64,000 nucleotides of DNA from an uncultured Candidatus Saccharibacteria bacterium (lineage in GTDB: Bacteria; Patescibacteriota; Minisyncoccia; Phycocordibacterales; UBA1550), in the NCBI GenBank assembly GCA_964642305.1, contig CAZXOE010000003.1, positions 33,685 through 97,684 of the forward strand, written 5' to 3'. This document shows positions 25,393-61,270 of the stretch, piece by piece. Each line of letters opens with the position of its first letter. Position 1 is the stretch's first letter. Position numbers and translations under genes: made by a program. The notes under the pieces are model-generated. The model worked only from the letters and a program-made list of their open reading frames with translations. It searched no databases and was not told the origin of the DNA.

Positions 25393-26824
25393 ATATTCCA
25401 AGTAGCGTGTACGTAATAGCCAGTGTCAAGAGTGGGAATGAAATGTTGTGAAGCGATGCAAATGGCACTCGCGCAAAAAATTCTACAAGTGTGACGATAT
25501 ACGCAAGAAGCCCATATGCAAAAATCGCGAGTAGGTTTCCAGCAATAGGCAACCACGCAAGTACCGCGGCAAGAGAAACTGCGAGCATCGCAATTGGAAC
25601 AACTGGTAAAATAAAAATATTTGAAATGAAACCTATGAGTGACATGCTTCCCATATGATAAAGAATGAGCGGAAACACAAAAATTTGTGTAGCAAAAGTT
25701 GTAACAATTATTTCTCTAAAAATTTTACTTGAAATGAATACAAAATATTTTTCTAAGACTGGCACAAAAACAACAATCGCTAGTGTCGCAGAAAATGAAA
25801 GTTGAAATGACACGTCATGAAAAAGTATCATTGGGTTAACAAAGACCATAGTGCCTCCCACAAGCATTAGCACGCGAAGAGCATCACCCTCGCGACCGAG
25901 CATACGCGCAAGTATCACCACGAGTGCCATTAATGTCGCGCGCACGACTGTTGCGCCTCCACCAACCATTACCGCAAAAAGAATAATGCCAAGCGCGCTC
26001 GTAAAAAGTCTAATTGAAAATGGCATGAACATAACAGCTCGAGAAATTATACTTGCAACTACTGCTATGTTGTACCCAGACAGAACTACAATATGAGCAA
26101 TTCCTGTTTCACGAAATTTTTGTATTAAATCCTCTCCGAGTGACTGTTTTGCTCCAAGCGTAATACCGCTCGCAAGTGACGACTCTGGCTCAGGAATACT
26201 TTGTGAAATATTTTTCATGAGCCACGATTTAAATATGAAAAGTTTTTCACGAATTAGATTTCCATTACCGTGTGAAACTACTGAGACCTCGGGAAAATAC
26301 ATTTGATAATGTATGCCGTCTTTCGCGAGGTAAGACCGATAGTCAAACGCTCGAGTGTTGTCTTTAGAAGAGAAGTTTTGAGGAATTACTATTTTCCCTA
26401 TTACTGAAACACTGTCTCCATATTTTAATTCTGGGTATGTTTGAAGGCGCACAAGAATTCGTGTATTTTTCTCAAGGACATTATTCGTCTCTAGGACAAC
26501 ATTTGTGTATTTCTCTCGGACATCAGGTTCATCAATAATCACTCCATCAAGTTTTACTAGATTCCCAACAACACTATCTAGTATGCCAGCCGATGTATTC
26601 GCATTAGAAACATCTACACGAAAAATCCCCAAAGCAATACCTAAAAAAATCAGTGAAACAAAAACAACAGTTTTTGACTGAGGCCCTGTATCTCTTATTA
26701 GAAATATAAAGAGTGATAATATCACACACAATACTGCGAATGAGTATCCAAAATCTAATATACTCTCTAGCGCAACACCGACAATGAAACTAATTATGAA
26801 ACCAAAAAAATATTTCGTATTCAT
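25355..26824 (-). CDS. comEC: ComEC/Rec2 DNA internalisation channel (DUF4131 + competence domain), lacking MBL domain
   Basis: Multi-TM with ComEC competence-domain pattern; 3' end overlaps dedA by 38 nt (convergent). Confidence 0.75.
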   Translation of the reverse strand: MNTKYFFGFIISFIVGVALESILDFGYSFAVLCVILSLFIFLIRDTGPQSKTVVFVSLIFLGIALGIFRVDVSNANTSAGILDSVVGNLVKLDGVIIDEPDVREKYTNVVLETNNVLEKNTRILVRLQTYPELKYGDSVSVIGKIVIPQNFSSKDNTRAFDYRSYLAKDGIHYQMYFPEVSVVSHGNGNLIREKLFIFKSWLMKNISQSIPEPESSLASGITLGAKQSLGEDLIQKFRETGIAHIVVLSGYNIAVVASIISRAVMFMPFSIRLFTSALGIILFAVMVGGGATVVRATLMALVVILARMLGREGDALRVLMLVGGTMVFVNPMILFHDVSFQLSFSATLAIVVFVPVLEKYFVFISSKIFREIIVTTFATQIFVFPLILYHMGSMSLIGFISNIFILPVVPIAMLAVSLAAVLAWLPIAGNLLAIFAYGLLAYIVTLVEFFARVPFASLHNISFPLLTLAITYTLLGIFIFQFRSRLRGY

Positions 26825-37585: not shown

Positions 37586-38800
37586 TTATACGTTACTCAT
37601 CACCGAATACATCGGTGAAATCATAGAAACCGCAAAGAAGCCGACTGATGCGCCTATGAACACCATCAATATCGGCTCAATAATTGTAGACATATTTTTT
37701 GTCGCTTCATCAACTTCATTTTCATAGAACAGCGCGACGTTTAGCAGCATTTCAGAAAGCTTCCCTGTTTCCTCACCCACCTCTATCATATCGCCAACAA
37801 GAAGTGGGTAAATATCTGTTTCCGCAAATACAGACGACAATGGAATACCTTTTTGCACACGCTCCTCGGCTAATTTAAGCCTGTCCTTGTAGTATGAATT
37901 TTGTAAAACATCCTTTGTGATAGATATTGCTTCTAGCATATCAACACCAGAAGAAAGTAGAGACGATAGTGTGCGAGCAGTGCGAGCAGAGTTTGACTGA
38001 CGCACAAGATCCCCAACAATTGGCAACCTAAACGATATATATTCAAGCCCGCGCTTGCCCTGCTTTGTGCGAAGTGCGAAAAAAATCGCAGTTCCTATTG
38101 TTGCAACAGCTATCACGCCAAATATCAAATGATTTGAAAGAAAGTCTGATATCCACATAATTACTTTTGTGCTTGTTGGGAGCTCTGTATTTAGCTCCTT
38201 GAATGTCGCAGCTAGTGTGGGTACCACATAAATAAACATCAGCACACCGATAATAATAAGGGTCGCGATAACGACAGATGGATATATCATCGCGCCTTTT
38301 ATTTTCTTTTTTAAAAGATAACTTTTTTCAAGCTGGTCGCCGAGAGTAAGCAGAGCGTCCGAAAGCCCTCCAGACTCCTCTCCTGCGCGAACCATTGAAA
38401 CGAAAACAGGAGAAAAAACTTTTGGGAACTTTGCCATACCAGCGGAAAGAGTTGAACCTTTACTGATTTCTGCAAGCAAAGTTTTCAGAGTTTTTTTGAG
38501 TGCGGGATTTTTTGTCTGGCGCTCCTGAATAGAAAGTCCGCGGGAGAGAGATAACCCCGCGGTCATCATTGCGCTCAGGTTGTGCGAAAATACAATCAGC
38601 TCCTGCACCTTCACGCGAGAGAGCATCTCGTTGATGGTATCCATATTGATAACAAAACCACCTGCGACTTCCTCCACAGATACCACAGACTTCCCTTGTT
38701 TACGCAACTCTGCAGCGACAGCAAAACGATCTTTCGCCTCCATCTCACCGGAAGTTTCATCACCAGACAGTTCGCGTACTTTGTATTTAAATTTTGGCAT
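37586..38800 (-). CDS. pilC: Type IV pilus / T2SS platform protein PilC (GspF family)
   Basis: Two GspF repeats, 3 TM, 404 aa. Confidence 0.85.
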   Translation of the reverse strand: MPKFKYKVRELSGDETSGEMEAKDRFAVAAELRKQGKSVVSVEEVAGGFVINMDTINEMLSRVKVQELIVFSHNLSAMMTAGLSLSRGLSIQERQTKNPALKKTLKTLLAEISKGSTLSAGMAKFPKVFSPVFVSMVRAGEESGGLSDALLTLGDQLEKSYLLKKKIKGAMIYPSVVIATLIIIGVLMFIYVVPTLAATFKELNTELPTSTKVIMWISDFLSNHLIFGVIAVATIGTAIFFALRTKQGKRGLEYISFRLPIVGDLVRQSNSARTARTLSSLLSSGVDMLEAISITKDVLQNSYYKDRLKLAEERVQKGIPLSSVFAETDIYPLLVGDMIEVGEETGKLSEMLLNVALFYENEVDEATKNMSTIIEPILMVFIGASVGFFAVSMISPMYSVMSNV

Positions 38801-38867
38801 TGCTGTTTACAGTATAACAAAGAAAAAAAGAAATTGTGCGAAACTTTTTTGTAAATAGAGCTCCACT

Positions 38868-40754
38868 CTATTCAGATACCACACGGAAAATTTCTTCTAT
38901 AGTCGTCAGCCCTTGAACCGACTTTACTATTCCGTCTTCAAGCATTGTGTTCATTCCTTCTTTTCTCGCCTGCTCCTCTACTACAGCCGAGGTTGCGCCC
39001 TTTATAATAAGTTCGCGAATAGTAGGAGACATTTTCAAAACTTCGTGGATACCAACACGACCTTTGTATCCGTCTTCCGACTCGTCCGTTTTTTTAGGAC
39101 GATAAAAAGGCACATCTTTCCACTCTGCTTTTGGGTCCACGATATTTTCTGCCTTCAGCACTTTCATTATGCGATCAAGATCAACAGATTTTTTTAAGAC
39201 CTCAAGCTCATCAGGGTTCATAAAATACTTTTCCTTCACTGCTGTAAGACGGCGGACGAGGCGCTGAGAGATGATAACGTTCACTGTGGAAACAATGAGA
39301 AACGGCTCAATGTCCATATCAATAAGACGGGGCATTGTGGATGAGGCGGAGTTGGTGTGGAGTGTAGAGAGCACAAGGTGCCCTGTGAGCGCCGCATTCA
39401 CAGCGAGAGATGCTGTTTCATTATCGCGGATTTCACCAACCATAATAATGTCTGGATCCTGACGCATAAGCGTACGTAGTCCAGATGCAAATGTTAGTCC
39501 AATCTCCGACTTTACTTGCGTTTGATTGACGCGCGACATTTGATATTCAATCGGATCCTCAATAGTTGAGATGTTTACGTCCGGCTCATTTAGCAAATCA
39601 AGGATTGTATAAAGTGTCGTGGATTTACCGGATCCAGTAGGTCCCGTGGTAAGGATCATCCCAACGCGTTGCTTCATCGCGTCGTGAATACGCTCAAGGT
39701 TCACACCGGCAAAGCCGAGCCCCTCAAGAGTGAAGCCAGACACCGATTCGCGAAGAAGACGCATAACAGTTTTTTCTCCATAGTAAACAGGGAGAGTTGA
39801 AACACGGAATGCAACTTTTTCTCCGGCAGATTCTATTTTAAAACGCCCGTCCTGTGGCAAACGTTTTTCATCAAGCTTCAAGTTTGCAAGAACTTTCACG
39901 CGCGCAACAATACCAGAAGCGGCAGTTTTTGGAAGAACCATTGCGTCGTGCAAAATTCCATCAATGCGATAACGAATCACCACCTGTGAATCTAGCGGTT
40001 CAATATGAATGTCTGATGCTCCCTGAATAATCGCGTGGTTCAAAAGCGTGTCAACAATTTTCACAACTGGCAAATCCTCTGCAAGTTTTTTTAAATCTTC
40101 CTCGCTTTGTGTCTCCTCTCCATCTGCAACCATTTTTAGTGAGCCTGCCTCCTTTTCAATAATATCTCCAAACTCCGCCTTAAGACTTTTTTGGTACTGA
40201 AGAAGAACACTTTTGATTGACTCCTTGTCTGTTAGTCGTGGAAGAATTTTTAAACCAACCTTTTTTTTCACGAACTCAATAGCACCGAGGTCGTCAGTAT
40301 CAAGCATGGCAACCTCTAGCGTGGTTGTTGTTTTTTTGAATGCGACAATGTTGTTCTTTCTTGCAATGGGCTCCGGTATTAAAGACAGAACTTCAAAGTC
40401 TATTTTTTGATCCTTTAGATTTACAAATGGAATACCTAGAATATACGCCTCAGTGCGACGAAGGTCGTCCTCTGAAAGTTTCCCGTCAGAAACCAAAATA
40501 TTTCCTAAATATGTTTTATTTTCCTCGGCTTGCTTTTCAGCAATGTCTAGCTCTGTGCGTGGCACGAGCCCTGAGTCAGCAATAAAATCTTTCAGTTGTT
40601 TGTTGTTAATGGTCATGAGGGATTGAATATTGAATATTGGAATCATTATATCAAACTTTGCGCACATATAATATGTATAGCTGTGGAATACACAAATATA
40701 AATCGCCGAGAACCATTCTGGCTCTCGGCGATTAAGACGATTAAACTGAAACAA
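38868..40754 (-). CDS. pilB: Type IV pilus assembly ATPase PilB (GspE family); true start probably MTINNKQL
   Basis: GSPII_E N-domain, Walker A GPTGSGKST, Asp/His boxes. Confidence 0.9.
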   Translation of the reverse strand: MFQFNRLNRREPEWFSAIYICVFHSYTYYMCAKFDIMIPIFNIQSLMTINNKQLKDFIADSGLVPRTELDIAEKQAEENKTYLGNILVSDGKLSEDDLRRTEAYILGIPFVNLKDQKIDFEVLSLIPEPIARKNNIVAFKKTTTTLEVAMLDTDDLGAIEFVKKKVGLKILPRLTDKESIKSVLLQYQKSLKAEFGDIIEKEAGSLKMVADGEETQSEEDLKKLAEDLPVVKIVDTLLNHAIIQGASDIHIEPLDSQVVIRYRIDGILHDAMVLPKTAASGIVARVKVLANLKLDEKRLPQDGRFKIESAGEKVAFRVSTLPVYYGEKTVMRLLRESVSGFTLEGLGFAGVNLERIHDAMKQRVGMILTTGPTGSGKSTTLYTILDLLNEPDVNISTIEDPIEYQMSRVNQTQVKSEIGLTFASGLRTLMRQDPDIIMVGEIRDNETASLAVNAALTGHLVLSTLHTNSASSTMPRLIDMDIEPFLIVSTVNVIISQRLVRRLTAVKEKYFMNPDELEVLKKSVDLDRIMKVLKAENIVDPKAEWKDVPFYRPKKTDESEDGYKGRVGIHEVLKMSPTIRELIIKGATSAVVEEQARKEGMNTMLEDGIVKSVQGLTTIEEIFRVVSE

Positions 40755-50879: not shown

Positions 50880-52412
50880 ATGGACATTAATATTGCACTC
50901 ACGCTGGGAGGCGTGATGGCAATTCTGGTCGGTGCGGCAATTGGATACCTTTTGCGTTGGTTTGTTGCAATGAGCAAAAAAGGGTCTATTGAGCTTGAAG
51001 TAAAACAAGTTCTTCTTTCTGCAAAGGAGGAAGCGCAAAAAATTATTGAGGAGGCTGACCGGAGAGCCGAAATATACGGGCAAGAGCTTCACGAGGAAGA
51101 ACGCGAGCAAAGCGAGCGCTTCAAAAAAATAGAAGAGAGACTCATTAAAAAAGAGGAATTTCTGGACAAAAGACAGACAGACATAGACAGCGAAGTTGCT
51201 CACATCAAAGAAAAAGCTGATGAACTGCGGGTTATTCGCGAAAAAACTAACAAGGAAAACGAATTTGTTCACAAGGAGCTGGAACGTGTCGCTCGTCTAA
51301 ATACCGATGACGCAAAGGAAGAACTCGTCAAAAGAGTTGAAAAGACATACGAAGAAGATCTTTTGTTGCGTATCAAGAAACTTGAGGCAGATGGAGAGGA
51401 ACGACTCGCTCTAAAAGCGAGAAATATTCTAGCTACTTCTATTCAGCGCCTAGCAACTTCTACGGCCGCAGAGATGATGGCGACATCAGTACCTATTGCG
51501 TCTGACGAAATAAAAGGAAAAATCATTGGAAAAGAGGGCAGAAACATTCGAGCTTTTGAGAGAGCCGCGGGGGTGGAGGTTATAGTTGACGACACGCCGG
51601 GCTCTATTCTCATTTCCTCATTTGACCCTATTCGTCGTCAAATCGCCCGCGTTGCACTAGAATCCCTTATAGAAGACGGGCGTATTCAGCCTGCAAAAAT
51701 AGAAGAAGCGGTTGAAAAAGCTCGGGAGGGTGTTAACAAAATTACAAAAGAAAAGGGTGAACGTGCTGCGTATGAGTGCGGAGTTTATAATCTAGATCCG
51801 CGCATAATTGCCATACTTGGACGACTTCATTATCGCACAAGTTACGGGCAAAACGTGCTTCAACATTCAATAGAAATGTCTCACATTGCTGGGATGATTG
51901 CCGAAGAAATAGGCGGGAATGTAGCCGTCTCAAAGGCTGGGGCCCTTCTGCACGACATCGGGAAGGCAGTAGACCACGAGGTGCAAGGCACACATGTGGA
52001 AATCGGTCGTAAAATACTCCAGAAGTTTAATGTTGATCCGCGAATTATTCAGGCAATGCAGTCTCATCACGAGGAATACCCGTATGAGACATTAGAGTCT
52101 ATTATTGTGCAAACTGCGGACTCTATTTCAGGTGGTCGCCCAGGAGCGCGCAGGGATTCTGCCGAAAACTACATAAAACGCCTAGAGGATCTAGAGGGGA
52201 TCGCAAAATCTTTCCCAGTTGTGGATAAAACCTATGCAATACAAGCTGGAAGGGAGCTTCGCGTGTTTGTAAGGCCAGAAGAAATCAGTGATCTTGACGC
52301 GAGAAAGCTCGCTCGCGACATAGCAATTCGCGTAGAAAAGGAACTCAAGTACCCTGGTGAAATAAAAGTGGCGGTGATTCGCGAATCGCGCGCGATTGAA
52401 TACGCAAGATAG
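50880..52412 (+). CDS. rny: Ribonuclease Y
   Basis: N-terminal TM, coiled coil, KH domain, HD domain (LLHDIGK). Confidence 0.9.
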   Translation: MDINIALTLGGVMAILVGAAIGYLLRWFVAMSKKGSIELEVKQVLLSAKEEAQKIIEEADRRAEIYGQELHEEEREQSERFKKIEERLIKKEEFLDKRQTDIDSEVAHIKEKADELRVIREKTNKENEFVHKELERVARLNTDDAKEELVKRVEKTYEEDLLLRIKKLEADGEERLALKARNILATSIQRLATSTAAEMMATSVPIASDEIKGKIIGKEGRNIRAFERAAGVEVIVDDTPGSILISSFDPIRRQIARVALESLIEDGRIQPAKIEEAVEKAREGVNKITKEKGERAAYECGVYNLDPRIIAILGRLHYRTSYGQNVLQHSIEMSHIAGMIAEEIGGNVAVSKAGALLHDIGKAVDHEVQGTHVEIGRKILQKFNVDPRIIQAMQSHHEEYPYETLESIIVQTADSISGGRPGARRDSAENYIKRLEDLEGIAKSFPVVDKTYAIQAGRELRVFVRPEEISDLDARKLARDIAIRVEKELKYPGEIKVAVIRESRAIEYAR

Positions 52413-52703
52413 ACACTTTGCGACTAAAATTAAAGAATGTTTTTTTGATTTTGGCAATCTTCACAGAAGTCCTTGTATCTATTGCTTAAAAAAACATAGG
52501 GGGGTATACTATTTGACAAGGAGGTCTGACCCGCGTCGAAGTGGGGCAACTCCCCTTTCATAAAACTATGAAAGGTAAGTCGCTGGCTAAAACAATTTAT
52601 GCAAAGGAATTGTTCGCCCGAACATTTTCTAGAAGAAAATGTTTTAGGGTAAGAAACTCGTTTTAGTATTAAAAGGTTAATAATCGTTAATATAATTATA
52701 ATT

Positions 52704-52976
52704 ATGAATAAAGCAGCTATCGCAGAAATCATTCACGAAAAAATGGGTGGAACAAAGGTATCAGCAGAGGAGACACTTGATGCAATTCTTTCAGGGATTA
52801 TAAATACTCTTAAGAAAGGTGACGAGGTTTCAATCGCAGGACTTGGTATCTTTTCAACAAAGGCGCGCGCAGCACGCACAGCACGCAACCCAAAGACTGG
52901 TGAGGCTATTCAGGTGAAAGCAACAACAGTTCCAAAGTTCCGCGCAGCAAAGGCGCTCAAGGATGCGGTGAAGTAA
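52704..52976 (+). CDS. hup: DNA-binding protein HU
   Basis: HU/IHF signature (GLGIFSTKARAARTARNPKTGE). Confidence 0.9.
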   Translation: MNKAAIAEIIHEKMGGTKVSAEETLDAILSGIINTLKKGDEVSIAGLGIFSTKARAARTARNPKTGEAIQVKATTVPKFRAAKALKDAVK

Positions 52977-52991
52977 TTTACTAAAGTTCTT

Positions 52992-53032
52992 AAATCAAAA
53001 GGCCGTCACTCAAAGTGACGGCCTTTTGATTT
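52992..53032 (+). terminator. Rho-independent terminator after hup
   Basis: aaatcaaaaggccgtcac tcaaa gtgacggccttttgattt. Confidence 0.8.
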
Positions 53033-53235
53033 GGTGCGGGTACGGCTCTCGGTCACGGATTACTAAATGTTCTCGCGCGAGTACGCACTGCGAGCATTAA
53101 GTATCCGCTACCCCGCCTCACTGTTGCTTCGCAACATGTTCCGGCTTTCGATTCTCCACGCAAGACGCGCAGGCGTCTTGCTGTACCCGCACCATGCAAA
53201 AATCCTCCAACCAAAATGGTGGAGGATTTTTGCAT
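53032..53235 (-). repeat. tRNA-3'-flank element downstream of tRNA-Gly(UCC)
   Basis: Hairpin 53191-53238 includes the CCA; antisense copy (gtacccgcacca 53182-53193) then hairpin (53160-53181) then antisense T-arm-like ccggctttcgattctcc; spacer; direct repeat tggtgcgggtacgg at 53032-53045 and 53236-53249. Confidence 0.6.
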
Positions 53236-53308
53236 GGTGCGGGTACGGAGAATCGAACTCCGATCAAAGGATTGGAAATCCCTTATTCTACCACTAAACT
53301 ATACCCGC
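53236..53308 (-). tRNA. tRNA-Gly (anticodon UCC), CCA encoded
   Basis: rc folds as cloverleaf: acceptor GCGGGTA/TACCCGC, anticodon loop UUUCCAA, T-arm cggagTTCGATTctccg. Confidence 0.75.
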
Positions 53309-53440
53309 TTATTTTTGAAAACCTAGCAAGACAATAGCAAAAAAGGACTAATTTCGCAATGTTAATTGCGAAACCCGCCCGCTCGTTTTCATCTACCCCT
53401 AAACCGCCTTCGGCGGTCGGGCGAACCTGCGAAGCAGGTT

Positions 53441-54316
53441 TTAGCCCACAATCCCCCTTACCTTCGTCACAATCTCATCAAGCGTGAAGTTTGCCTTAAC
53501 CATAAAATCTTTTGCGCCAAGGGCCATCGCTTTATCTAAATCTTCTTTTTGTCCTAGATTGGAGAGAATTACAACTGGCACATCTGCAATCTTTGGGTCA
53601 GCCTTTATTCTTTTTAGAATCTCAAAACCATCAACACCTGGCAAAATAAGATCGCACAAAATTACCCTTGGCTTCCTTTCTTCCAAAATAGTAAAAGCAG
53701 CCTCTGCGTCAATTGCGTTCTGTACATCAAATCCCTCACTTGAAAGCTTTCTTACCAGAAGTTCACGCAAAAACTTATCATCCTCTATAACAAGGACAAA
53801 CGCTTTGCCTAGAGCTGTGGCATTTGCAACACTTGCCGCAGCCTGAGCCACTGTTGGTTTTTCCTCTGGATGTTCTGCGGCTCCTGCACCCGTTACATTT
53901 TGAGTACGCACTCCCCACTCGCCTTGTGGAGCCATTGTGCCGCCAGCGAGCACCTTCTTCACCTTTTCAAGTACTTCATTTGGATCAAAGACCGCCTTTA
54001 TCAAAAACTCACGCGCTCCAAGCTCTTGCGCGCGCTGTATCTCTACAGGCTGACCAGAGTTTGAAATAATAATAACTGGGATATCAGTAAGATTAGGATC
54101 AGCGTGAAGGTCCTCCAGTACTTCTATACCACTCTTGCGTGGCATTAATATGTCCAATAGTATGCAATCTGGCCTTACGGCATGAATCTTTTCCATAGCA
54201 ACTATTCCATCTTGCGCCGTGTCTACATCGTAGCCACTCTTTTGTAGCTTTTCAGCAAGGACGTCACGAAGAACCGCATCATCCTCAACAATAATAATTC
54301 TCTTTTTCTCTTCCAT
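53441..54316 (-). CDS. Response regulator with two tandem receiver domains and no output domain
   Basis: Two REC domains (IIIVEDD…ILLDILMP…; VLVIEDDKFL…ILCDLILPG…) with Ala/Gln-rich linker. Confidence 0.8.
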   Translation of the reverse strand: MEEKKRIIIVEDDAVLRDVLAEKLQKSGYDVDTAQDGIVAMEKIHAVRPDCILLDILMPRKSGIEVLEDLHADPNLTDIPVIIISNSGQPVEIQRAQELGAREFLIKAVFDPNEVLEKVKKVLAGGTMAPQGEWGVRTQNVTGAGAAEHPEEKPTVAQAAASVANATALGKAFVLVIEDDKFLRELLVRKLSSEGFDVQNAIDAEAAFTILEERKPRVILCDLILPGVDGFEILKRIKADPKIADVPVVILSNLGQKEDLDKAMALGAKDFMVKANFTLDEIVTKVRGIVG

Positions 54317-54354
54317 AATAATGATGTTAGTATATTACAAATTCTACAAAACTG

Positions 54355-56280
54355 CTAGGGTAAAACCGGTTCGCCAGTCGAATCGCCTGGTTGAGTTACT
54401 GTGGTAGACATCTGTGTCACCACCTCATCCTTTGGTATTAGCCCTTCTACTACTGGCACAACGACTGTAAATGTTGTACCCTTACCCTCCACAGAATCAA
54501 CCCAGATCTGTCCTCCATGTCGCATTATAATACTCTTTACAATAAAGAGACCTAACCCTGACCCATCTGTCTGCAAATGAATCACATTTGCCGCGCGGAA
54601 GAACTTTGAGAAAAGTTTTGGTATGTCTGCTTTTGGAATGCCGACACCAGTGTCGGAAACTTTTACTTCTATATAGTCCCCTTGTCTCTCTATAACAATA
54701 GTAACCCTCCCGCCAGGAAGCGTGTACTTCATAGCATTGTCAACAATATTTTGAAGCGCGATGAGAAGTTTTTCTGGATCAAACATGAATTCGGGTATTA
54801 CGCCAGCGCGATTTTCAAGACGTACTTCAATATTGCGCTCTTTTGATGGCAACACAGTGTTCTCTATAAGAGTGTTGATTAACTTCATAAAATCATTCTT
54901 TGTGAAATTGTAACCGAACCTTCCGTTCTCTATGCGCGAAACATTAAGAAGGTCATTCACAAGTTGAATCATTTTTTCATTTGTTTCATACCCGCGTTTA
55001 AGCATACCCTTTTGATCATCATTGGTAGCACCTAGGTCACCATCAAGAAGAAGTTTGAGCACCCACTTAACACCAGATAGCGGCGTGCGAAGCTGATGCG
55101 CTGCGACAGAAATGAAATCTGACTTTAATTTATCCAATTCACGCAGGTTTTGTACCATAGAATTAAACACGTCTCCAAACTGCCCAATTTCATCATCAGA
55201 GGTGTGTTCTACTGTTTGACTCAAATCACCGTCGGCAATCTTACGCGCAATTTTAGAATAGTTGGTAATTGGTACCACAACTTCTCTGCGCAAAATAACT
55301 GCGAGTACAATAACCAACACAGCAGTAAGCACAATTCCAACTCCCACCATACGCAGAACAAGCGAATTAACCCTATCTTTATATGATGAAGAAAGTATAT
55401 GAACCTCCAAAAGACCGATGGTCTCCACACCATTATCAGTATTTATTTTAATAGGCACCACGTGCACTGTGTCGCTAGAACCTCGGTGAACACGGTCATA
55501 CCTCACTTCCTCTTTCCCCGACAAAACATCTTCTCGGGCGCGTCTATGATCTTCATAAGCTCCACTCATAAATTCATCTTTTTGACTGCCTGTGCTTGCT
55601 ATTACGTTAAGCAGATTATCAAATACAATAAGGTCGTGGAAATAATTAAACTTTGTGACGTCATCGGTGATTTTCTGGATAGCCTTAATGTCACCGTTTT
55701 TAGTCGCCACAATAGAGCGCGCGCTTTGTTCTATGCTTACTGAGATTGCGTTAAGAAGCTTTTGCGCGCTAAGAATATCAGCCGCGCCCTTTGTCTTTGT
55801 AATAACCTCAACTTCGATGACATCGATAATATCCGCGGACTCGTCATCACTTGCGCGTACAGGTATACGGCTCTCAAATTCAAAATAGGAACCCTCGTCA
55901 TTTTTCACATTCAAAGCCCTCCCATCAGCTTTTATTTGAGCAATATAACGCGCATCAATATCTGAGACCTTTTGTCCTATTAAATTGTGATTAGTAGTCG
56001 CAATATAGTAGCCATCAACACTCGCGACATCAATATATTTTACACCCTCAATCTTTGAGAGTTTGTCTACAATTATCTGAAGCTTGCTCTCCTCAGCGTG
56101 TATCTGCTCAAACATGCGAGCGATATTATCATAAAGAATTTCTTCAATTGTTTTTGAATCAGCGCTCACTTGCTTTTGTATGTTTGAGCTTTCAATCTTT
56201 ATAATAAACAAAAAAGCTACTGTAAAAACAATTACTGACACTGTAACCAGAAGAAGATTTATTTTTGTCCCAAGTCTCAT
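54355..56280 (-). CDS. Sensor histidine kinase (N-terminal TM + extracellular sensor, HAMP, HisKA, HATPase_c)
   Basis: H-box FISVAAHQLRTPL, N/G1/G2 boxes (DNAMKYT, DTGVGI, GSGLGL). Confidence 0.85.
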   Translation of the reverse strand: MRLGTKINLLLVTVSVIVFTVAFLFIIKIESSNIQKQVSADSKTIEEILYDNIARMFEQIHAEESKLQIIVDKLSKIEGVKYIDVASVDGYYIATTNHNLIGQKVSDIDARYIAQIKADGRALNVKNDEGSYFEFESRIPVRASDDESADIIDVIEVEVITKTKGAADILSAQKLLNAISVSIEQSARSIVATKNGDIKAIQKITDDVTKFNYFHDLIVFDNLLNVIASTGSQKDEFMSGAYEDHRRAREDVLSGKEEVRYDRVHRGSSDTVHVVPIKINTDNGVETIGLLEVHILSSSYKDRVNSLVLRMVGVGIVLTAVLVIVLAVILRREVVVPITNYSKIARKIADGDLSQTVEHTSDDEIGQFGDVFNSMVQNLRELDKLKSDFISVAAHQLRTPLSGVKWVLKLLLDGDLGATNDDQKGMLKRGYETNEKMIQLVNDLLNVSRIENGRFGYNFTKNDFMKLINTLIENTVLPSKERNIEVRLENRAGVIPEFMFDPEKLLIALQNIVDNAMKYTLPGGRVTIVIERQGDYIEVKVSDTGVGIPKADIPKLFSKFFRAANVIHLQTDGSGLGLFIVKSIIMRHGGQIWVDSVEGKGTTFTVVVPVVEGLIPKDEVVTQMSTTVTQPGDSTGEPVLP

Positions 56281-56378
56281 ATTTATGTTATCTAAAGTAT
56301 ATCATAACTTCTTTACAATATTGTGAATTTTTTATAACAAAAAACTAACCTATGTCTCTCGACCAAACAACCTAGTCA

Positions 56379-57518
56379 CTATTGCGTAGGCACGGAGCGC
56401 ATATCATTGTCATCATTTGCGAGACATCTAGACCTCAAATAAAGTCCTGCAAGAAAATACAGCACAAACACAAATATTACCCCAAATGAGAACAAATAAA
56501 TATTTCTTTCTATTTTGAGCGCGCTTACGCGATCTTGCAATAGATTGCCGAGGGAAGCAGTAGCAGTGTCGTTAAACATAAATACATTATCAAGCAATCT
56601 TGTTATAGTTGTGTAGTATTCAAGTCTTTCTATTGTATTCGTTTCAGCGTTAACGAATCTCTTATCTACAATTTCTGAAAATAAGCCCACTTTGCTGGAT
56701 ACATCTTCAAGAGGCGCCTCGAGTTGCTCTCGCAATCGCATATTTCCTTTAAATGCAGTCTGCATTCCACGCTGGATTTCATTCATATTTGCGTTGGCAA
56801 TAATAGAAGTTGAAAGAAAAACTTGCCTATCACTTTGTGAAATAATTTTATTCCTCTGCATTGTCAGGCCAGCAACACGCGCTTGCCCCATATTTTCGCT
56901 AATCACGGGTATGCGATTAACGATCGTGTCAACGAGATGCAGACTATCAGTATGAGCATCAATGGTAAGTCTTGACGTGTCCTTTATCTGAGCAAGGAGA
57001 AGAAGTATGTCTTGAATAAGATGTGTATGTTTTTCAAAACTTAGCTCCACTGTAAGAGAGCGGTCGTCTACCATGCGCTCAAGTTCTAACCATTCATTCT
57101 TGACATCATTAACATACGCAAGCTCGAATCCTGTTTTAAACCTAATTTCAAATTCGGCCGCAACACGTTCCAAATTAGAAAAATCTCCATTTATCTCACT
57201 ACGCTTATACGCAAGTTCTTTTTCTAAATTCTTGTATCCGCTCAAGTATGCTCCTGTAAGACCTCTGTGTTGTTGCAGGTCTTCAAGAAGGCGTTGAGTA
57301 GTGCTTATATACCGAAGCCCGGCCTGTTCAGAATACGTTGTGGCAATATTTCTGTTAATATCCGAAACGATCAAAAACAACCACACAGAAAAAGAAAGTG
57401 TAAAAAGAAAACCCACAACTAGAAAACCTTGTAGTAAGCTAAGCTTGCTTATCAAAAAAACAGCTGGATCAAATATTTTTCTAAAATTTGAAAGGTTCAT
57501 GTATACCAGTATACACAA
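56379..57518 (-). CDS. NIT-domain (nitrate/nitrite-sensing-like) membrane protein without kinase domain
   Basis: Two TM flanking a domain with LQQHRGLTGAYLSG, resembling the NIT sensor signature. Confidence 0.45.
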   Translation of the reverse strand: MCILVYMNLSNFRKIFDPAVFLISKLSLLQGFLVVGFLFTLSFSVWLFLIVSDINRNIATTYSEQAGLRYISTTQRLLEDLQQHRGLTGAYLSGYKNLEKELAYKRSEINGDFSNLERVAAEFEIRFKTGFELAYVNDVKNEWLELERMVDDRSLTVELSFEKHTHLIQDILLLLAQIKDTSRLTIDAHTDSLHLVDTIVNRIPVISENMGQARVAGLTMQRNKIISQSDRQVFLSTSIIANANMNEIQRGMQTAFKGNMRLREQLEAPLEDVSSKVGLFSEIVDKRFVNAETNTIERLEYYTTITRLLDNVFMFNDTATASLGNLLQDRVSALKIERNIYLFSFGVIFVFVLYFLAGLYLRSRCLANDDNDMRSVPTQ

Positions 57519-57606
57519 AAGAAACGAGGTGTAACAACACTGCTAATTAATCTCTTTTATGGAGATTTCCGCAGAAGTGTTTAGGCACTTCTGGTTAAGG
57601 CTTTAG

Positions 57607-57677
57607 TCGGGGTGCCGAGAATCGAACTCGGCCTATCTGCTCCCAAAGCAGACGTACTACCGATATACTACACCCCG
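57607..57677 (-). tRNA. tRNA-Pro (anticodon UGG), no encoded CCA; leader and trailer extend the acceptor stem
   Basis: rc: acceptor CGGGGTG/CACCCCG, D-stem GTAT/GTAC, anticodon loop UUUGGGA, T-arm ccgagTTCGATTctcgg; flanks gctttagt/actaaagc pair. Confidence 0.7.
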
Positions 57678-57734
57678 ACTAAAGCTTCAACTATATGGAC
57701 GAAATCATAGCACAGATACCAATATTTGCGAATA

Positions 57735-58163
57735 CTAAAGAACGATATTCTCCAAAAATTTGACTCGTGCCTTACGAGTTTTTATGTCAATTTCAACGGT
57801 AACTGCGTCAAAAACCCATTCTGGCTCCCCGTTTGCGTGTTTTTCAAACAAATATAACTGAATTACACGCGCTAGTCTCTTGAGTTTGTACGGGTGAAGA
57901 TTGTCTTCTGGACGATAACTGCTTGTTTCACGCGAAACATTCCTACTGTTTTCACTGCGTCCAAGACGTGAATTTGCTAATTCAGTAACACTTTTTACCT
58001 CAATAAAATGGGTAATTCCGTCCTTTTTAGCAATAATATCAATTTCCCCGCACTTTTTGAGGTAATTTCGCTCAATTATTGAAAAATCCTTATTTTCTAA
58101 GTATTTTACGGCAATATCCTCTCCCAAGCGTCCAATTTTCTGCTTTTCCGTAGGTTTTCCCAT
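57735..58163 (-). CDS. yraN: YraN-family (UPF0102) endonuclease-like protein carrying an in-frame copy of the 30-nt repeat
   Basis: GEIDIIAKKDGITHFIEVKS … YKLKRLARVIQLYL; extra segment TELANSRLGR encoded by repeat copy E. Confidence 0.65.
   Translation of the reverse strand: MGKPTEKQKIGRLGEDIAVKYLENKDFSIIERNYLKKCGEIDIIAKKDGITHFIEVKSVTELANSRLGRSENSRNVSRETSSYRPEDNLHPYKLKRLARVIQLYLFEKHANGEPEWVFDAVTVEIDIKTRKARVKFLENIVL
57958..57986 (+). repeat. 30-nt double-hairpin repeat, copy E (inside yraN CDS, in frame)
   Basis: cgtccaagacgtgaatttgctaattcag, identical to copy B. Confidence 0.6.
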
Positions 58164-58502
58164 TGATCTCTATTGTAACATTTAATATGTTTCGCGTGAA
58201 ACACCCAAATTTAGCCTATTTTTAGGCTAAAAAAGGTTAAATCGCGTGAAACCTATATATATTAAGGGTTTTCTGAGGTTATGACTACTGTCTTTTAGAG
58301 TCTGTGACTTTTTTACTAGCCAATTTTGTGTCCTTTATCAACACTGTCCACAGAGTTATCCACAGTTTTTGGTGTTTTCACCTTATTTTTCTGTTTCCAG
58401 CCGTTGACATAATGTGTCAAAGTAGTGTTTTCTGCGCGGAATGTCCTTTATAAGACGCATACTGCTCGTTTTGGTTAAGTACTTATCAAAAACCGAACAC
58501 CC

Positions 58503-59207
58503 GTGCTATACTTTAGAGATATGCGTAAGGACAAAGAGCAAGCAGTTAATCTGCGCAAGCTTGGCAAAAGCTACAAGGAAATTTCAAATGAATTGCGTAT
58601 TCCAAAAAGTACGCTGTCAGAATGGTTTGGCGGTTCAGTGTGGTCGCAAAAAATTAAAGAAAATCTTAACTGCGTTGCTCAGGCAAATAGCACTGTGCGA
58701 ATTATAGAACTCAACAATATTCGTGGAGAGCATCTTGAAAAACTTTATACACAGGCAAGGCTTGAAGCGTTGGAAGATTTTATGGCGCTCAAACACCACC
58801 CGACATTTGTTGCCGGAGTGATGCTGTATTGGGGTGAAGGGGATAAAGCGTCTCTACATCGAGTATCGCTGACAAACACAGACCCAGCAATGATTAAAAT
58901 CTTTATGATTTTTCTTAAAGAAGTCTGCGGGATTAGTGATGAGAAAATTAAAGTATGGCTTCTTTTATACCCAGATCTTCAGGAATCAGATTGCAAGGAA
59001 TATTGGGCAAGGGAAGCTGGTTTACAAAATATAACTTTTAATAAAAGTATTGTGATAGATGGTAGACACAAGACCAAGCGACTAGGGCATGGCGTCTGTA
59101 CTGTTGGTGTTTCTAGTAGATATTTTAAGGAAAAGATGTTATTGTGGATTTCACTATTCCCTGATATGCTTGCTGACGGGGGATTATACAAACAAACGCG
59201 GATATAA
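58503..59207 (+). CDS. HTH-domain protein with possible degenerate LAGLIDADG-like homing-endonuclease fold; 3' end overlaps tRNA-Gly(GCC) by ~10 nt
   Basis: N-terminal HTH LRKLGKSYKEISNELRIPKSTLSEWF; FVAGVMLYWGEGDKASL…LKEVCGI spacing resembles the I-CreI topology. Confidence 0.4.
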   Translation: MLYFRDMRKDKEQAVNLRKLGKSYKEISNELRIPKSTLSEWFGGSVWSQKIKENLNCVAQANSTVRIIELNNIRGEHLEKLYTQARLEALEDFMALKHHPTFVAGVMLYWGEGDKASLHRVSLTNTDPAMIKIFMIFLKEVCGISDEKIKVWLLLYPDLQESDCKEYWAREAGLQNITFNKSIVIDGRHKTKRLGHGVCTVGVSSRYFKEKMLLWISLFPDMLADGGLYKQTRI

Positions 59208-59268
59208 TTTAGTGGTAGAATTCCTCGTTGCCAACGAGAGAGTGGGAGTTCGATTCTCCCTATCCGCA
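59198..59268 (+). tRNA. tRNA-Gly (anticodon GCC), no encoded CCA
   Basis: Acceptor GCGGATA/TATCCGC, anticodon loop TTGCCAA, T-arm gggagTTCGATTctccc. Confidence 0.75.
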
Positions 59269-59270
59269 CA

Positions 59271-59490
59271 TTAACTACAGACCTATGCAACTACGTTGCA
59301 TAGGTCTGTAGTTAACTATTCTATGGTTAGGGAGAATCGAACAGGAGGGGGTCGGGGAACCTACGGTTCCCCGTGGAGGAAGGAATGGGAAAACCGTGGG
59401 TTTCCCAGGAGTGAGATAGCGGAGCGTCTCCCTATCCGCACATCACACAGAAAAACCTCAAGGATATCCTTGAGGTTTTTCTGTGTGATG
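59271..59490 (+). repeat. tRNA-3'-flank element downstream of tRNA-Gly(GCC)
   Basis: 21-bp perfect hairpin 59271-59315; antisense tagggagaatcgaac 59328-59342; direct repeat tctccctatccgcaca at 59427-59442 (cf. tRNA 59255-59270); terminal hairpin 59441-59490. Confidence 0.6.
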
Positions 59491-59655
59491 TGCCCCCGCC
59501 AGGATTCGGTCCCGAGTTTCTAGTTCGTTTCACTCACAAGAACTCGCGACCCCGGCTCGCTGTCGCGATGCGACATACTCCGCCTTTCGAATCCTGACAC
59601 AAGCCAAGCAGTTGGCTTGTTGCGGGGCACAAAAAATGCGCCCAACGATTTTTTG
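59489..59655 (-). repeat. tRNA-3'-flank element downstream of tRNA-Arg(UCG), same architecture
   Basis: +strand gcggggcaca (antisense of 3' end) at 59622-59631, hairpin acaagccaagcagttggcttgt, antisense T-arm-like cctttcgaatcctgac; direct copy of 21-nt 3' end at 59489-59510. Confidence 0.55.
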
Positions 59656-59726
59656 TGCCCCCGCCAGGATTCGAACCTGGAACACCGGTTTCGAAGACCG
59701 AGATGATATCCATTTCACCACAAGGG
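59656..59726 (-). tRNA. tRNA-Arg (anticodon UCG), probable; acceptor stem has two G-U pairs
   Basis: rc: GCCCTTG…CGGGGGC acceptor, D-stem GTGA/TCAT, anticodon loop CTTCGAA, T-arm ccaggTTCGAATcctgg. Confidence 0.55.
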
Positions 59727-59797
59727 CATTGTATGATGACTGTACAGCAAATATGGTCAAAAGGCAAAAAAAACTGTATGATTTCAGTACTTAGATA

Positions 59798-61270
59798 ATG
59801 ACAAAGATTGATTACAACGTTCCAGAGGAAGTTTCACGTGTAACCGAAACCTTGCGAGACGCAGGGTTTGAGGCGTATCTTGTTGGCGGATGCGTGCGTG
59901 ATATCTTGCAGGGAATTAAGCCAAAGGATTGGGACGCCACTACAAATGCAACTCCTGAGCAGATCCAGGCGCTATTTGAGAATTCTTTTTACGAAAATGA
60001 CTACGGAACGGTTGGTATTGTTAATGAAACAGAAGATGAAACATTAAAGGTTGTGGAGGTCACGCCATACCGCAGTGAAGGCGCATATACTGACAAACGC
60101 CGCCCAGACAGTGTTTCGTTTCACGGGAAACTAGATGAAGACCTAAAACGCCGTGATTTTACTATAAATGCTATTGCTTATGATGAATCTAAAGGACATC
60201 TAACGGACATTCATGGTGGTCTAAAGGACATAAAGGACAAAGTAATCCGTACAGTAGGTAATCCGGTAGAACGTTTCAATGAAGACGCTCTCCGTGTTCT
60301 TCGGGCTGTTCGCCTAGCAACTGATCTCGGTTTCACTATTGAAGCGGAGACACAGAATGCGGTAGTTGAGAAAGCAGGGGACCTGAAACACATCTCTATG
60401 GAACGCATCCGTGACGAATTCACAAAAATGATAATGACAAAAAATCCTATGGTAGGAATTGTGATGTGTCAGAAACTTGGTCTTCTAAAATATATTGCCC
60501 CGGACATTGAGAGGGGAATTGATGTTGAACAAAACGGCGATCACATTTACACAGTGTGGGAACACAACTTGCGCGCGCTTCAACACTCTGCAGATCGCGA
60601 GTGGCCTTTACACGTGCGACTCGCATCGCTCCTTCACGATGTTTCAAAACCAGAGACACGCAGATGGTCTGAAGAAAAAAATGATTGGACTTTTTATGGT
60701 CACGATGTAGTTGGCGGACGCGTTGCAAAAAAAGTTCTTGAACATCTGAAATATCCTAAAAAAATTGTTGAGGTTGTTTCTGCACTCGTACGTTACCACT
60801 TATTTTTTTCTGACATAGAGAAAATAACACTCTCTGCTGTGCGTCGCATTGTTAGAAACGTTGGGCCTGACAATGTGTGGGATTTGATGAAAGTTCGCGC
60901 CTGCGATCGCATTGGAATGGGCCGCCCAAAGGAAGCGCCATACCGTTTGCGCAAATATGAATCAATGATAGAAGAAGCCATGCGCGCGCCAGTGTCTGTG
61001 GGAATGCTCAAGATTGATGGGCAAAAAATAATGGAGGTTACACGTGAAACACCGGGACCAAAGTTAGGATTTATTCTCCACGCGCTTCTTGAAGAGGTGC
61101 TTGATGATCCAGAGAATAACACAGAAGAGTTTCTCGTGAAACGCACGCTTGAGCTTACGAAACTTCCGATTGATGAATTAAAGAAGCTCGGCGAGGAAGG
61201 GAAAGAGGCAAAGGAAGAGGAGGAAGAAAAAGAACTCGCAGAAATCCGCAAAAGACACGGGGTGAAGTAG
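59798..61270 (+). CDS. cca: CCA-adding enzyme / tRNA nucleotidyltransferase with HD domain
   Basis: Pol-beta head motif LVGGCVRD; HD domain HD…H; Glu/Lys-rich tail. Confidence 0.85.
   Translation: MTKIDYNVPEEVSRVTETLRDAGFEAYLVGGCVRDILQGIKPKDWDATTNATPEQIQALFENSFYENDYGTVGIVNETEDETLKVVEVTPYRSEGAYTDKRRPDSVSFHGKLDEDLKRRDFTINAIAYDESKGHLTDIHGGLKDIKDKVIRTVGNPVERFNEDALRVLRAVRLATDLGFTIEAETQNAVVEKAGDLKHISMERIRDEFTKMIMTKNPMVGIVMCQKLGLLKYIAPDIERGIDVEQNGDHIYTVWEHNLRALQHSADREWPLHVRLASLLHDVSKPETRRWSEEKNDWTFYGHDVVGGRVAKKVLEHLKYPKKIVEVVSALVRYHLFFSDIEKITLSAVRRIVRNVGPDNVWDLMKVRACDRIGMGRPKEAPYRLRKYESMIEEAMRAPVSVGMLKIDGQKIMEVTRETPGPKLGFILHALLEEVLDDPENNTEEFLVKRTLELTKLPIDELKKLGEEGKEAKEEEEEKELAEIRKRHGVK

Follow-up and report, generated by a model that had tools for sequence, protein, structure and literature searches.

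Protein-free mobile elements with inverted and direct copies of tRNA gene ends in Patescibacteria

Introduction

Patescibacteria, also known as the candidate phyla radiation (CPR), account for much of bacterial diversity, are difficult to study by genetics and have tiny genomes that are thought to be poor in mobile elements. Here we analyze a 64,000-nucleotide stretch (the window) of contig CAZXOE010000003.1 from an uncultured Candidatus Saccharibacteria bacterium, in which a tRNA-Gly(GCC) gene and a tRNA-Arg(UCG) gene face each other, copies of both tRNA 3′ ends lie between them and an open reading frame (ORF) runs into the tRNA-Gly gene. An earlier note on this DNA had proposed that the ORF, taken to resemble a homing endonuclease, and the duplicated tRNA ends point to a mobile or selfish element that targets tRNA loci. 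The question raised by this locus is which of these parts is mobile, and how it could have come to lie behind a tRNA gene. Our analysis upholds mobility for the elements that flank the tRNA genes and rejects the ORF as their engine. The DNA between the two tRNA genes consists of two protein-free elements of about 150-175 nt, placed back to back at one terminator-like palindrome. Each combines a folded core with an inverted and a direct copy of the tRNA gene end, and related elements are widespread behind other genes of these bacteria.

Results

Layout of the locus

ARAGORN and Rfam agree on the convergent tRNA pair that had been reported from the sequence, both Rfam scores lying above the RF00005 gathering threshold of 29 (Table 1). 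Repeat finding and folding indicate that the intervening 385 nt are not an ordinary spacer. The duplicated tRNA 3′ ends are likewise real and perfect: TCTCCCTATCCGCACAT of tRNA-Gly occurs at 59255-59271 and 59427-59443 (17 nt, 100% identical), and TGTGCCCCCGCCAGGATTCG of tRNA-Arg occurs at 59489-59508 and 59654-59673 (20 nt, 100% identical). Each element additionally contains an inverted copy of the tRNA tail, which is absent from the earlier note. In the tRNA-Gly unit this inverted copy covers the T loop, the 3′ strand of the T stem and the first part of the acceptor 3′ strand. Before 59325, where it would face the acceptor end proper, the copy is degenerate. The repeat finder pairs the inverted copy with the direct copy at 59427-59437 as well. 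The corresponding copy in the tRNA-Arg unit is in two parts, 59586-59596 and 59622-59629, interrupted by a small hairpin with a CUGC loop. This accessory hairpin, whose middle pairs covary, is also found in L002, L005, L026, L053, L072 and L085 (L-numbers denote comparison loci). The inserts between the repeat copies measure about 157 and 145 nt and contain only short, overlapping ORFs of the chance type and no plausible gene.

The two units do meet at a shared hairpin, which the earlier note had given as 22 bp at 59441-59490; it is larger than that, a perfect 28-bp palindrome at 59438-59493. Its center, read from the sequence, is GC-rich (CCTCAAGG/CCTTGAGG) and lies between an AAAAA and a TTTTT tract, and it looks like a bidirectional terminator that closes both tRNA-plus-element units. 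A terminator consensus scan missed this palindrome, probably because its A and T tracts pair into the 28-bp stem. The linker hairpin directly behind tRNA-Gly was scored as terminator-like with a weak T tail in the terminator scan. Near the other end of the same element, the GTGAGAT of the junction creates tandem G.A mismatches against the inverted copy, and this junction recurs in L219, L227, L259 and L275.

A third unit lies 6 kb away and consists of tRNA-Gly(UCC) with an element of the same type as that of tRNA-Arg. This tRNA gene encodes its CCA end, and both the inverted and the direct copy carry CCA (TGGTGCGGGTAC / GTACCCGCACCA), the direct copy at 53033-53046. The tRNA-Pro gene at 57606-57677 has no such element. 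All three tRNA-plus-element transcripts fold 11-17 standard deviations more stably than shuffles (z-scores of -14 and -11 for the two units of the convergent pair), and the element cores of the window match covariance models at 85-91 bits.

Table 1. Features of the locus, with positions counted in the window
Feature	Position	Strand	Remarks
tRNA-Gly(GCC)	59198..59269	+	host gene of type B element; ARAGORN; Rfam RF00005 64.6 bits
Linker hairpin, type B element	59271..59315	+	21-bp perfect stem, 3-nt loop, directly 3′ of tRNA-Gly
Inverted copy, tRNA-Gly tail	59325..59342	+	18 nt, 94% complementary to 59248-59265
Type B core	59340..59413	+	GGGGUCGGG, hairpin, CCCGUGGAGGAAG, then GGGAAAACCGUGGGUUUCCC-AGGAG
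Type B junction	59411..59426	+	GTGAGAT (altered T-loop copy), then mini-hairpin AGCGGAGCG; read from sequence
Direct copy, tRNA-Gly 3′ end	59427..59443	+	17 nt, 100% identical direct repeat
Shared palindrome	59438..59493	.	perfect, 28-nt arms, no spacer; meeting point of both units
Direct copy, tRNA-Arg 3′ end	59489..59508	-	20 nt, 100% identical direct repeat
Type A core	59500..59596	-	three-way junction; overlaps inverted T-arm copy 59586-59596; covariance model 85.3 bits
Accessory hairpin, CUGC loop (~59598-59621), then inverted copy of acceptor 3′ strand (59622-59629)	59598..59629	-	
Hairpin of tRNA-Arg 3′ end and trailer with inverted copy	59624..59661	-	14-bp arms, 10-nt loop
tRNA-Arg(UCG)	59655..59727	-	host gene of type A element; ARAGORN; Rfam RF00005 58.2 bits
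Third unit: tRNA-Gly(UCC) 53235-53308 and type A element	53033..53308	-	core 53038-53157
Paceibacteria ORF	58521..59207	+	probable N-terminal helix-turn-helix (HTH), long helix, alpha/beta domain without family assignment; outside mobile elements
Conserved trio of DnaA-box-like words	58329..58366	+	upstream of ORF; context, outside elements

Element families and their common plan

Our survey of tail repeats covered the window and 86 loci with 338 tRNAs, some of these loci being duplicates of one contig. Once duplicate loci were removed, a downstream direct repeat of the tRNA tail was present in 54 cases, of which about six are merely adjacent tRNAs and several others are short tRNA-Pro tail duplications. 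The layout seen in the window recurs at about 40 further tRNAs in 80 Paceibacteria loci. Its 5′ part comprises the tRNA, a linker that is either a terminator-like hairpin or a purine-rich loop of about 18 nt, the inverted acceptor 3′ strand and an optional hairpin, often with a CUGC loop. In the 3′ part, the 3′ strand of the T stem and the T loop follow, again inverted; next come the core, in some cases a mini-hairpin, and the direct copy, which starts at the T loop and extends 1-9 nt beyond the 3′ end. Both copies correspond to the last ~20 nt of the tRNA. Four types can be told apart by core sequence: A (window tRNA-Arg and tRNA-Gly(UCC)), A′ (a variant of type A), B (window tRNA-Gly(GCC)) and C.

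A search of Rfam 15 at E<=1 over positions 52000-61000 returned only the tRNAs plus spurious microRNA-type hairpins far below threshold, and Rfam gave no match around an element copy in L062 that lacks a tRNA. Nothing relevant was found in the literature on tRNA-flank elements, structured RNAs of CPR bacteria, folded single-strand integration at tRNAs or miniature inverted-repeat transposable elements (MITEs) with acceptor-stem repeats; the lack of an Rfam or literature record is not proof of absence. Inspection by eye for signature motifs of permuted or split tRNA, transfer-messenger RNA (tmRNA), group I/II introns, the hammerhead and other small ribozymes found none, and Rfam is silent on all of them.

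Type C (L031, L038, L047 and L059 at tRNA-Arg(UCG); also L020, L022 and L027) has the same arm design around a core of GAAGACCUUGCGAG, a hairpin and CGCAAGGUGUACUGAAACUGUAAGUUUCGA. An optional module of about 60 nt, CCAATTTC..GGTATTCCG..GAAATG.AAGTACTC, is nested in different hairpins of different families, namely in the second hairpin of type B (L231, L260, L267, L273, L275) and in a hairpin of type A′ (L036, ~1330-1400). A GCGAAGC mini-hairpin with a GAA triloop, a heptamer that is exceptionally stable as DNA, recurs with close variants in loops and linkers (for example in L010, L020, L036, L047, L053, L227 and L275, and at 53110-53125 of the window), as judged by eye.

The tRNA-Pro(UGG) gene is followed by a conserved two-hairpin trailer of about 64 nt (window 57520-57605, minus strand; L005 ~6870-6962; L017; L048). 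Some relatives have a 17-25-nt duplicate of the tRNA-Pro 3′ end, covering the whole T arm, after this trailer and without an inverted copy, so that the tRNA-Pro tail duplication is of a different kind from the flank elements.

Both tRNA-Gly genes of the window have A at the discriminator position (59268-59269 and 53238). Bacterial tRNA-Gly usually has U73, and recognition by the glycyl-tRNA synthetase may be of the archaeal/eukaryotic type.

Type A is a covarying three-way junction on the tRNA-sense strand

A covariance model of the type A core, a three-way junction, was built from 14 copies and run on the window and 80 loci, giving 33 matches at E<0.001. Thirty of the 33 have a same-strand tRNA (Gly GCC/UCC, Arg UCG/CCG or Pro UGG) 21-117 nt upstream. 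The three exceptions are the second copy of a tandem, a copy at a contig end and an orphan with tRNA-Gly tail remnants on both sides. No copy is larger than about 250 nt. When all 33 sequences are aligned, 96% of the cells are paired, compensatory changes occur in 16 of the 17 pairs, and the covariation is 0.84, whereas shuffles reach 0.22 and slid controls about 0.1. Folding favors the tRNA-sense strand over the complementary one in 31 of the 33 copies (mean difference 7 kcal/mol, p ~1e-6), and G-U pairs outnumber A-C pairs by 18 to 4. Because of the excess of G-U pairs and the better fold of the sense strand, the functional form of type A is a single strand of tRNA polarity, most simply RNA. 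A word pattern for type A also hit at least 120 viral-contig loci; we attribute these hits to chance, since none of the 80 that were tested match the covariance model.

Type B has a near-invariant core and reaches targets other than tRNA genes

Type B was searched in metagenome contigs with a 21-base pattern derived from the window copy and L082, which hit at least 120 stretches against roughly five expected by chance, the latter being a rough estimate. The window holds a single type B copy (90.6 bits, E 1.5e-22 with the covariance model). The tRNA context of type B was counted in 80 loci among the matches listed: 47 matches have a same-strand tRNA 13-136 nt upstream, with about 30 anticodons represented, and the tRNA tail is repeated directly (at least 10 nt) in 29 of the 47 and inverted (at least 8 nt) in 38. 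The core of about 65 nt is near-invariant beyond the searched words too (GGGAAAACCGUGGGUUUCCC-AGGAG). Its first hairpin (Pa) covaries, and the second is so conserved that it shows no variation. In most direct copies the T-loop portion has changed, from GUUCGAU to GUGAGAU or from AA to UU, which, as read from the sequences, gives the helix formed by the two arms tandem G.A or U.U mismatches.

Most type B cores lie shortly behind a tRNA and on its strand. Some copies follow tmRNA-like 3′ ends, as seen by eye (L227, L286, L293), and others lie at protein-gene ends: in L237 and L241 the 3′ end of a gene for a small basic protein, and in L226, L272 and L278 the 5′ end of a gene resembling those for glycosyltransferases. 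At each of these non-tRNA targets the local gene end is again copied both in inverted and in direct orientation. By our own translation, the two copies in L237 and L241 encode a near-identical C-terminal peptide and differ mostly by synonymous codons, as expected if one copy was imported from another lineage.

In the type B alignment, the N of GUGG-N-GGAAG (column 44) changes together with the loop of the second hairpin (columns 63-65): A goes with GUG/GAG, U with CAA and C with AGG/AAG. This co-change could be a tertiary contact or just subtype history.

The flank elements are mobile

Comparison of relatives establishes that the flank elements themselves move among the tRNA genes and genomes of Patescibacteria. 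An identical tRNA-Gly(GCC) carries type B in the window and type A in L002 and L004, and is empty in L005, L007, L009 and L209, so that the earlier note's proposal to look for relatives without the flank element finds several. One of these, L209, has an ORF 86% identical to that of the window, yet its tRNA-Gly(GCC) is empty. Similarly, tRNA-Arg(UCG) has type A in the window, type A′ in L002 and no element in L004. The element of L002 and that of L004 are 96.9% identical over the 196 nt from the linker hairpin to the direct copy, as compared to 70-80% for the flanking genes, 62-66% for neighboring intergenic DNA and 62% for the DNA just past the direct copy. These boundaries of identity imply that the linker hairpin travels with the element and that the right border lies within the direct copy.

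The sequences of the cores are also informative. Type A cores do not cluster by tRNA, and nearest neighbors, at 75-86% identity, often sit on different tRNAs. By hand count, the type B core of the window differs from one behind a tRNA-Cys at about 3 of 64 positions. Tandem or nested copies are present in L022, L044, L005 and L264. Additionally, four independent assemblies (L210-L213; Logan, ERR3094292-ERR3094302) match the window without a difference from the ORF up to a point inside the type B core. They all stop at GGGAAAAC|CGTGG, which is the best-conserved word of type B; such a common break point is how a repeat family acts on a de Bruijn graph.

A conserved gene for a probable HTH protein next to tRNA-Gly(GCC)

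The ORF ends 10 nt inside tRNA-Gly, as previously described (stop codon TAA at 59205-59207, tRNA start at 59198). Its true start is probably ATG 58521, with the annotated GTG 58503 wrong, because homologues begin MRKDKE. There are 590 full-length relatives, all from metagenome-assembled genomes of Parcubacteria/Paceibacteria and all labeled hypothetical. The earlier note had read the protein as an HTH with a possible degenerate LAGLIDADG fold, and only the first half of this description finds support, from weak but consistent matches. HTH_SB matches 22 of 22 homologues (best E 2e-7), yet below the Pfam gathering score, a PHROG "DNA binding protein" matches at E 9e-5, and NCBIfam, PHROGs and PADLOC otherwise returned HTH-type matches or none. 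An AlphaFold2 model (pLDDT 87) places helices at residues 3-13, 18-25 and 29-36. The profile search that the earlier note had suggested found no LAGLIDADG family at E<=10 in the ORF or its homologues (Pfam; 22 sequences, HTH families only). Weak HTH matches at E>0.1 were all that a PDB sequence-profile search returned, hhalign against an approximate I-CreI sequence gave a probability of 0.2%, and Foldseek of the model against PDB and BFVD had no match at E<=0.001. Like LAGLIDADG homing endonucleases, the protein is small, has a G-E-G-D motif at the end of a helix and bears an HTH for DNA binding as an addition. Unlike them, it has no family or fold match, and the order of its strands differs, the C-terminal domain being predicted as a-b-a-b-a-b-b-a as compared to a-b-b-a-b-b-a for LAGLIDADG. 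Its presence is also not sporadic: its place in the chromosome is fixed, and protein identity is 45-87% among the matches that were examined.

We compared 80 ORF loci from GTDB species representatives of Paceibacteria, with 45-81% protein identity. In 79 of the 80 loci tRNA-Gly(GCC) starts between -21 and +68 nt from the ORF stop, and in 24 of these 79 the stop overlaps the tRNA 5′ end. The order UPF0102, ORF, tRNA-Gly, tRNA-Arg and CCA-adding enzyme is kept in relatives, and the ORF lies next to tRNA-Gly(GCC) regardless of whether an element is present. Because of this adjacency, we conclude that the ORF and tRNA-Gly(GCC) are a fixed, conserved gene pair and that the ORF is neither a mobile nor a homing gene. 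Conserved adjacency together with homology to a housekeeping family had been named in the earlier note as what would speak against its reading; the adjacency is indeed conserved, but the ORF lies outside any known housekeeping family. As the elements sit at many tRNAs without such an ORF nearby, the association of the ORF with elements is a positional coincidence.

The overlap has a predicted consequence for expression. RNase P cleavage at the tRNA-Gly 5′ end would strip the stop codon of the ORF from its mRNA, so that a single transcript could apparently either be translated to its stop or yield the mature tRNA, but not both. A leaderless mRNA is probable for the ORF, because a TG-extended TATACT -10 box lies only 8 nt before the ATG, also in relatives. 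This box belongs to a promoter-like TTATCA-18-TATACT in 58483-58521, with TG upstream of TATACT, which ends 8 nt before ATG 58521 and has the same spacing in relatives. In L004 (8690-8755) and L209 (896-961), a 66-nt insert bounded by duplicated GCGGATATA (the tRNA 5′ end) and containing a hairpin and a promoter-like TATACT lies between the ORF stop and tRNA-Gly. It is an insertion at the 5′ end of the same tRNA-Gly.

Region upstream of the ORF

The DnaA-box-like words and direct repeats that had been noticed upstream of the ORF are present, with TTATCAACA at 58335, TTATCCACA at 58356 and TCGCGTGAAAC at both 58192 and 58242. Over 72 loci, the 400 nt preceding the ORF show a 5-fold enrichment of DnaA-box-like words. 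A trio of them (TTATCAACA, CTGTCCACA, TTATCCACA) is kept with its spacing in six relatives, along with a repeated TGTCCTTTA word (the window, L002, L004, L005, L007 and L009 are named). The cumulative GC skew of the window reaches its minimum at about 58 kb, coinciding with a switch in gene orientation. The dnaA gene was not among the 10 large ORFs scanned, out of 17 of at least 330 amino acids in the window. This region is a candidate oriC or DnaA-controlled promoter. Within 58185-58256, the GTTTCGCGTGAAAC word is itself a near-palindrome, with GTGAAAC occurring again 50 nt downstream. The GTTTCGCGTGAAAC/GTGAAAC repeats, partly conserved in L002, L004, L005 and L007, lie between the UPF0102 gene and the divergent ORF and probably serve as a regulator site.

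Discussion

How the elements could move

The architecture, structure, strand, position, turnover and lateral transfer of the elements are matters of observation, and we file the elements as a new form of tRNA-targeting mobile DNA. The best explanation, which we put no higher than an even chance, is that a fixed pair of an HTH gene and tRNA-Gly lies beside two independent protein-free mobile elements that are read through from the tRNA and spread by recombination. Each unit would be transcribed from the tRNA promoter, and its inverted and direct copies would pair, closing the core into a stable, hairpin-bounded RNA. The cassette would enter a naive gene by recombination inside the conserved host gene, with homology provided on the left by the body of the tRNA gene and on the right by the direct copy. 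Folding of the inverted copy would hold the donor's own tail and linker away, so that the insert would present itself as a compact loop-out at the T loop. Foreign DNA could be taken up with machinery that the window encodes, namely a ComEC-type competence protein, a type IV pilus/type II secretion system ATPase and a platform protein (25355-26824 and 37586-40754). Upon a change of tRNA the arms could possibly be renewed by template switching at the T-arm and linker hairpins, the universal T-loop sequence serving as microhomology. The near-invariant sequence of the core suggests that it binds a conserved partner or is catalytic.

Several points weigh against this explanation. A canonical terminator as linker, found in some lineages, would limit read-through; a downstream terminator was seen in only 7 of 29 type B units, in a scan that is crude and uninformative. 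Tolerance of G.T wobbles extends to folded single-stranded DNA, so that the asymmetry between strands is no proof of RNA. Recombination leaves unexplained how both arms are re-tailored on a new tRNA, and accounts for neither the purpose of the core nor the accessory hairpins. Finally, no enzyme is linked to the elements.

A bolder version holds that the elements are an undescribed class of protein-free, retargetable elements of Patescibacteria, in which a folded core carries two complementary copies of a gene end, the arms alone define the target and the whole can move between genes and species. We consider this possible but would sooner doubt it than adopt it. It would be speculative to go further and see the core RNA as the active agent (as ribozyme, guide scaffold, or uptake or recombination signal) or the adjacent HTH protein as an enzyme acting in trans. 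The inverted copy as a primer-binding site of the retroviral type is an idea only, no reverse transcriptase context having been seen.

Alternatives

The main rival to spread by homologous recombination is integration of a folded single strand, which we judge unlikely. In this model the direct copy, linker and inverted copy would form a hairpin resembling the double-stranded 3′ end of the tRNA gene. One strand would then be exchanged with the chromosome by a host tyrosine recombinase, and replication would fix the insert. Precedents exist, as CTXphi uses XerCD, and integron attC sites act, by folded single-strand recombination. The order that this model predicts, attL, hairpin loop, inverted arm, cargo and attR, is the order observed; the structure is strand-specific, and the linker hairpin moves with the element. 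The repeated GCGAAGC mini-hairpins, as seen by eye, would also fit, as would an Xer-like gene of the phage-integrase family that is syntenic a few kb downstream in relatives. On the other hand, no dif-like or other recombinase-binding motif was recognized, with no dedicated search for dif or attC made, and a range of targets comprising about 30 tRNA anticodons, tmRNA-like ends and protein-gene ends is unlike that of any sequence-specific integrase. The conserved core is left unexplained as well, and we know of no way in which a 150-nt circle would be made or replicated. Neither this model nor recombination between homologous arms explains how both arms are renewed.

It is improbable that the elements are trailer RNAs that serve the host, old and vertically inherited, with their patchiness produced by loss. 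Such an RNA could be a platform for RNase P, RNase III or RNase Z, or a regulator that pairs transiently with the 3′ half of the tRNA. The closeness to and co-orientation with the tRNA (in type A) and the strongly conserved core structure would suit this role. The arms imitate the acceptor/T-arm helix with the accessory hairpin in the place of the D and anticodon arms, and in the predicted folds of minimum energy the inverted copy is paired with the genuine tail of the tRNA. Vertical inheritance is hard to reconcile with an element that is 97% identical between genomes whose genes are 70-80% identical, with cores that do not cluster by tRNA and with different families at the same tRNA in close relatives. 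Moreover, type B also occurs at protein-gene ends, where tRNA mimicry is impossible, and the closing helix pairs the CCA end too, unlike a tRNA substrate.

A tRNA 3′ end that is duplicated from its T loop on is the textbook mark of integrase-mediated integration, and the direct repeats could be read as attL and attR of a phage or island that was later almost wholly deleted. We regard such scars as very unlikely, as compactness and the same conserved, covarying core are common to the type B copies and all 33 of type A, none encloses an integrase or any other gene, the viral-contig loci tested have zero covariance-model matches, and an inverted copy and conserved fold would not persist in a scar.

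An equally slight probability attaches to a by-product of replication, in which template switching at the T arm and terminator hairpins would give a functionless direct-inverted-direct triplication of the tRNA tail. One end of the arms does fall at the T loop, a palindrome in its own right, and the other at a hairpin, and template-switch correction of quasi-palindromes is established and could keep the arms perfect. This process is refuted as a full explanation, since it cannot make the same covarying core of 70-110 nt at scores of genes in different organisms, but template switching may be the route by which arms are re-tailored.

Least probable of all is a single mobile unit composed of a degenerate LAGLIDADG ORF and the flank elements: the transposase-like HTH, the GEGD motif after a helix and three sub-threshold homing-endonuclease rows in BFVD (E 0.16-0.66) speak for it, and it is opposed by the lack of signal in Pfam, the PDB profile search, hhalign and Foldseek, by the 79/80 adjacency with or without an element, which refutes mobility of the ORF, and by the abundance of elements with no ORF nearby.

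Comparison with known systems

Phages, integrative and conjugative elements and islands that target tRNA genes share with the elements described here an intact target gene, a direct repeat from the T loop to the 3′ end (17 and 20 nt and perfect in this case), a proximal copy that appears to arrive with the element and highly conserved targets (tRNAs, tmRNA-like ends and conserved protein-gene ends). They differ in that our elements are only 120-200 nt long, have no integrase or other gene, and have an extra inverted target copy, a structured core and dozens of targets per core family.

The resemblance to CTXphi, integrative mobile elements exploiting Xer (IMEX) and attC sites lies in the order attL, loop, inverted arm, cargo and attR, in the strand-specific structure and in a hairpin that mimics the duplex target, which is formed here by the direct copy, linker and inverted copy as a perfect or near-perfect hairpin. 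In contrast to these systems, no dif-like or R/L-box motifs were recognized in the elements, though no motif search was made, the stem of about 20 bp is target-specific, and the cargo is a folded non-coding core instead of genes.

Bacterial MITEs (Correia, RPE, ERIC and BIME-type) are likewise small, non-coding, hairpin-forming intergenic repeats. They are often co-transcribed, and flanking direct repeats would allow their precise loss by slippage, as would be the case here. However, what would be the terminal inverted repeat in our elements is a target copy that differs with each host gene and not a constant end. The direct repeat of 11-25 nt varies in length, with start points that differ within the T loop or stem, so there is no short target duplication of fixed size. 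No related parent insertion sequence (IS) was seen, and location and orientation relative to tRNAs are strict. The elements consequently fail a defining feature both of islands (the integrase) and of MITEs (constant terminal repeats and a fixed target duplication).

Structured RNAs that lie beside a tRNA or imitate its acceptor/T helix are known as the MALAT1 mascRNA, the t-elements of plant mitochondria and the small RNAs from tRNA 3′ external spacers. By analogy with such tRNA-like modules, the element RNA would probably be released from the shared transcript by tRNA-processing enzymes. In those modules the helix is not, as it is here, the neighboring tRNA's own tail with the CCA end paired too, and our elements differ further in being mobile and in also occurring at protein-gene ends.

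The omega RNA of IS200/IS605 and the bridge RNA of IS110 similarly flank a conserved scaffold with segments that match the local target. No TnpB, IscB or IS110 recombinase lies near our elements, and the Rfam families of those RNAs are unmatched. Both target-matching segments of our elements cover the same 20 nt and are mutually complementary, which also sets them apart from omega and bridge RNAs.

Implications

The cores are strong candidates for new structured RNAs, one a near-invariant stretch of about 65 nt (type B) and the other a covarying three-way junction (type A), with no Rfam counterpart. On a practical level, the elements cause short-read assemblies to break at tRNA loci and attract spurious ORF calls from gene finders. 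If the arms really set the target, the design would be a possible template for programmable insertion tools in Patescibacteria. If our interpretation is true, widespread elements of about 150 nt behind tRNA, tmRNA-like and some protein genes would constitute a new route of gene flow in Patescibacteria.

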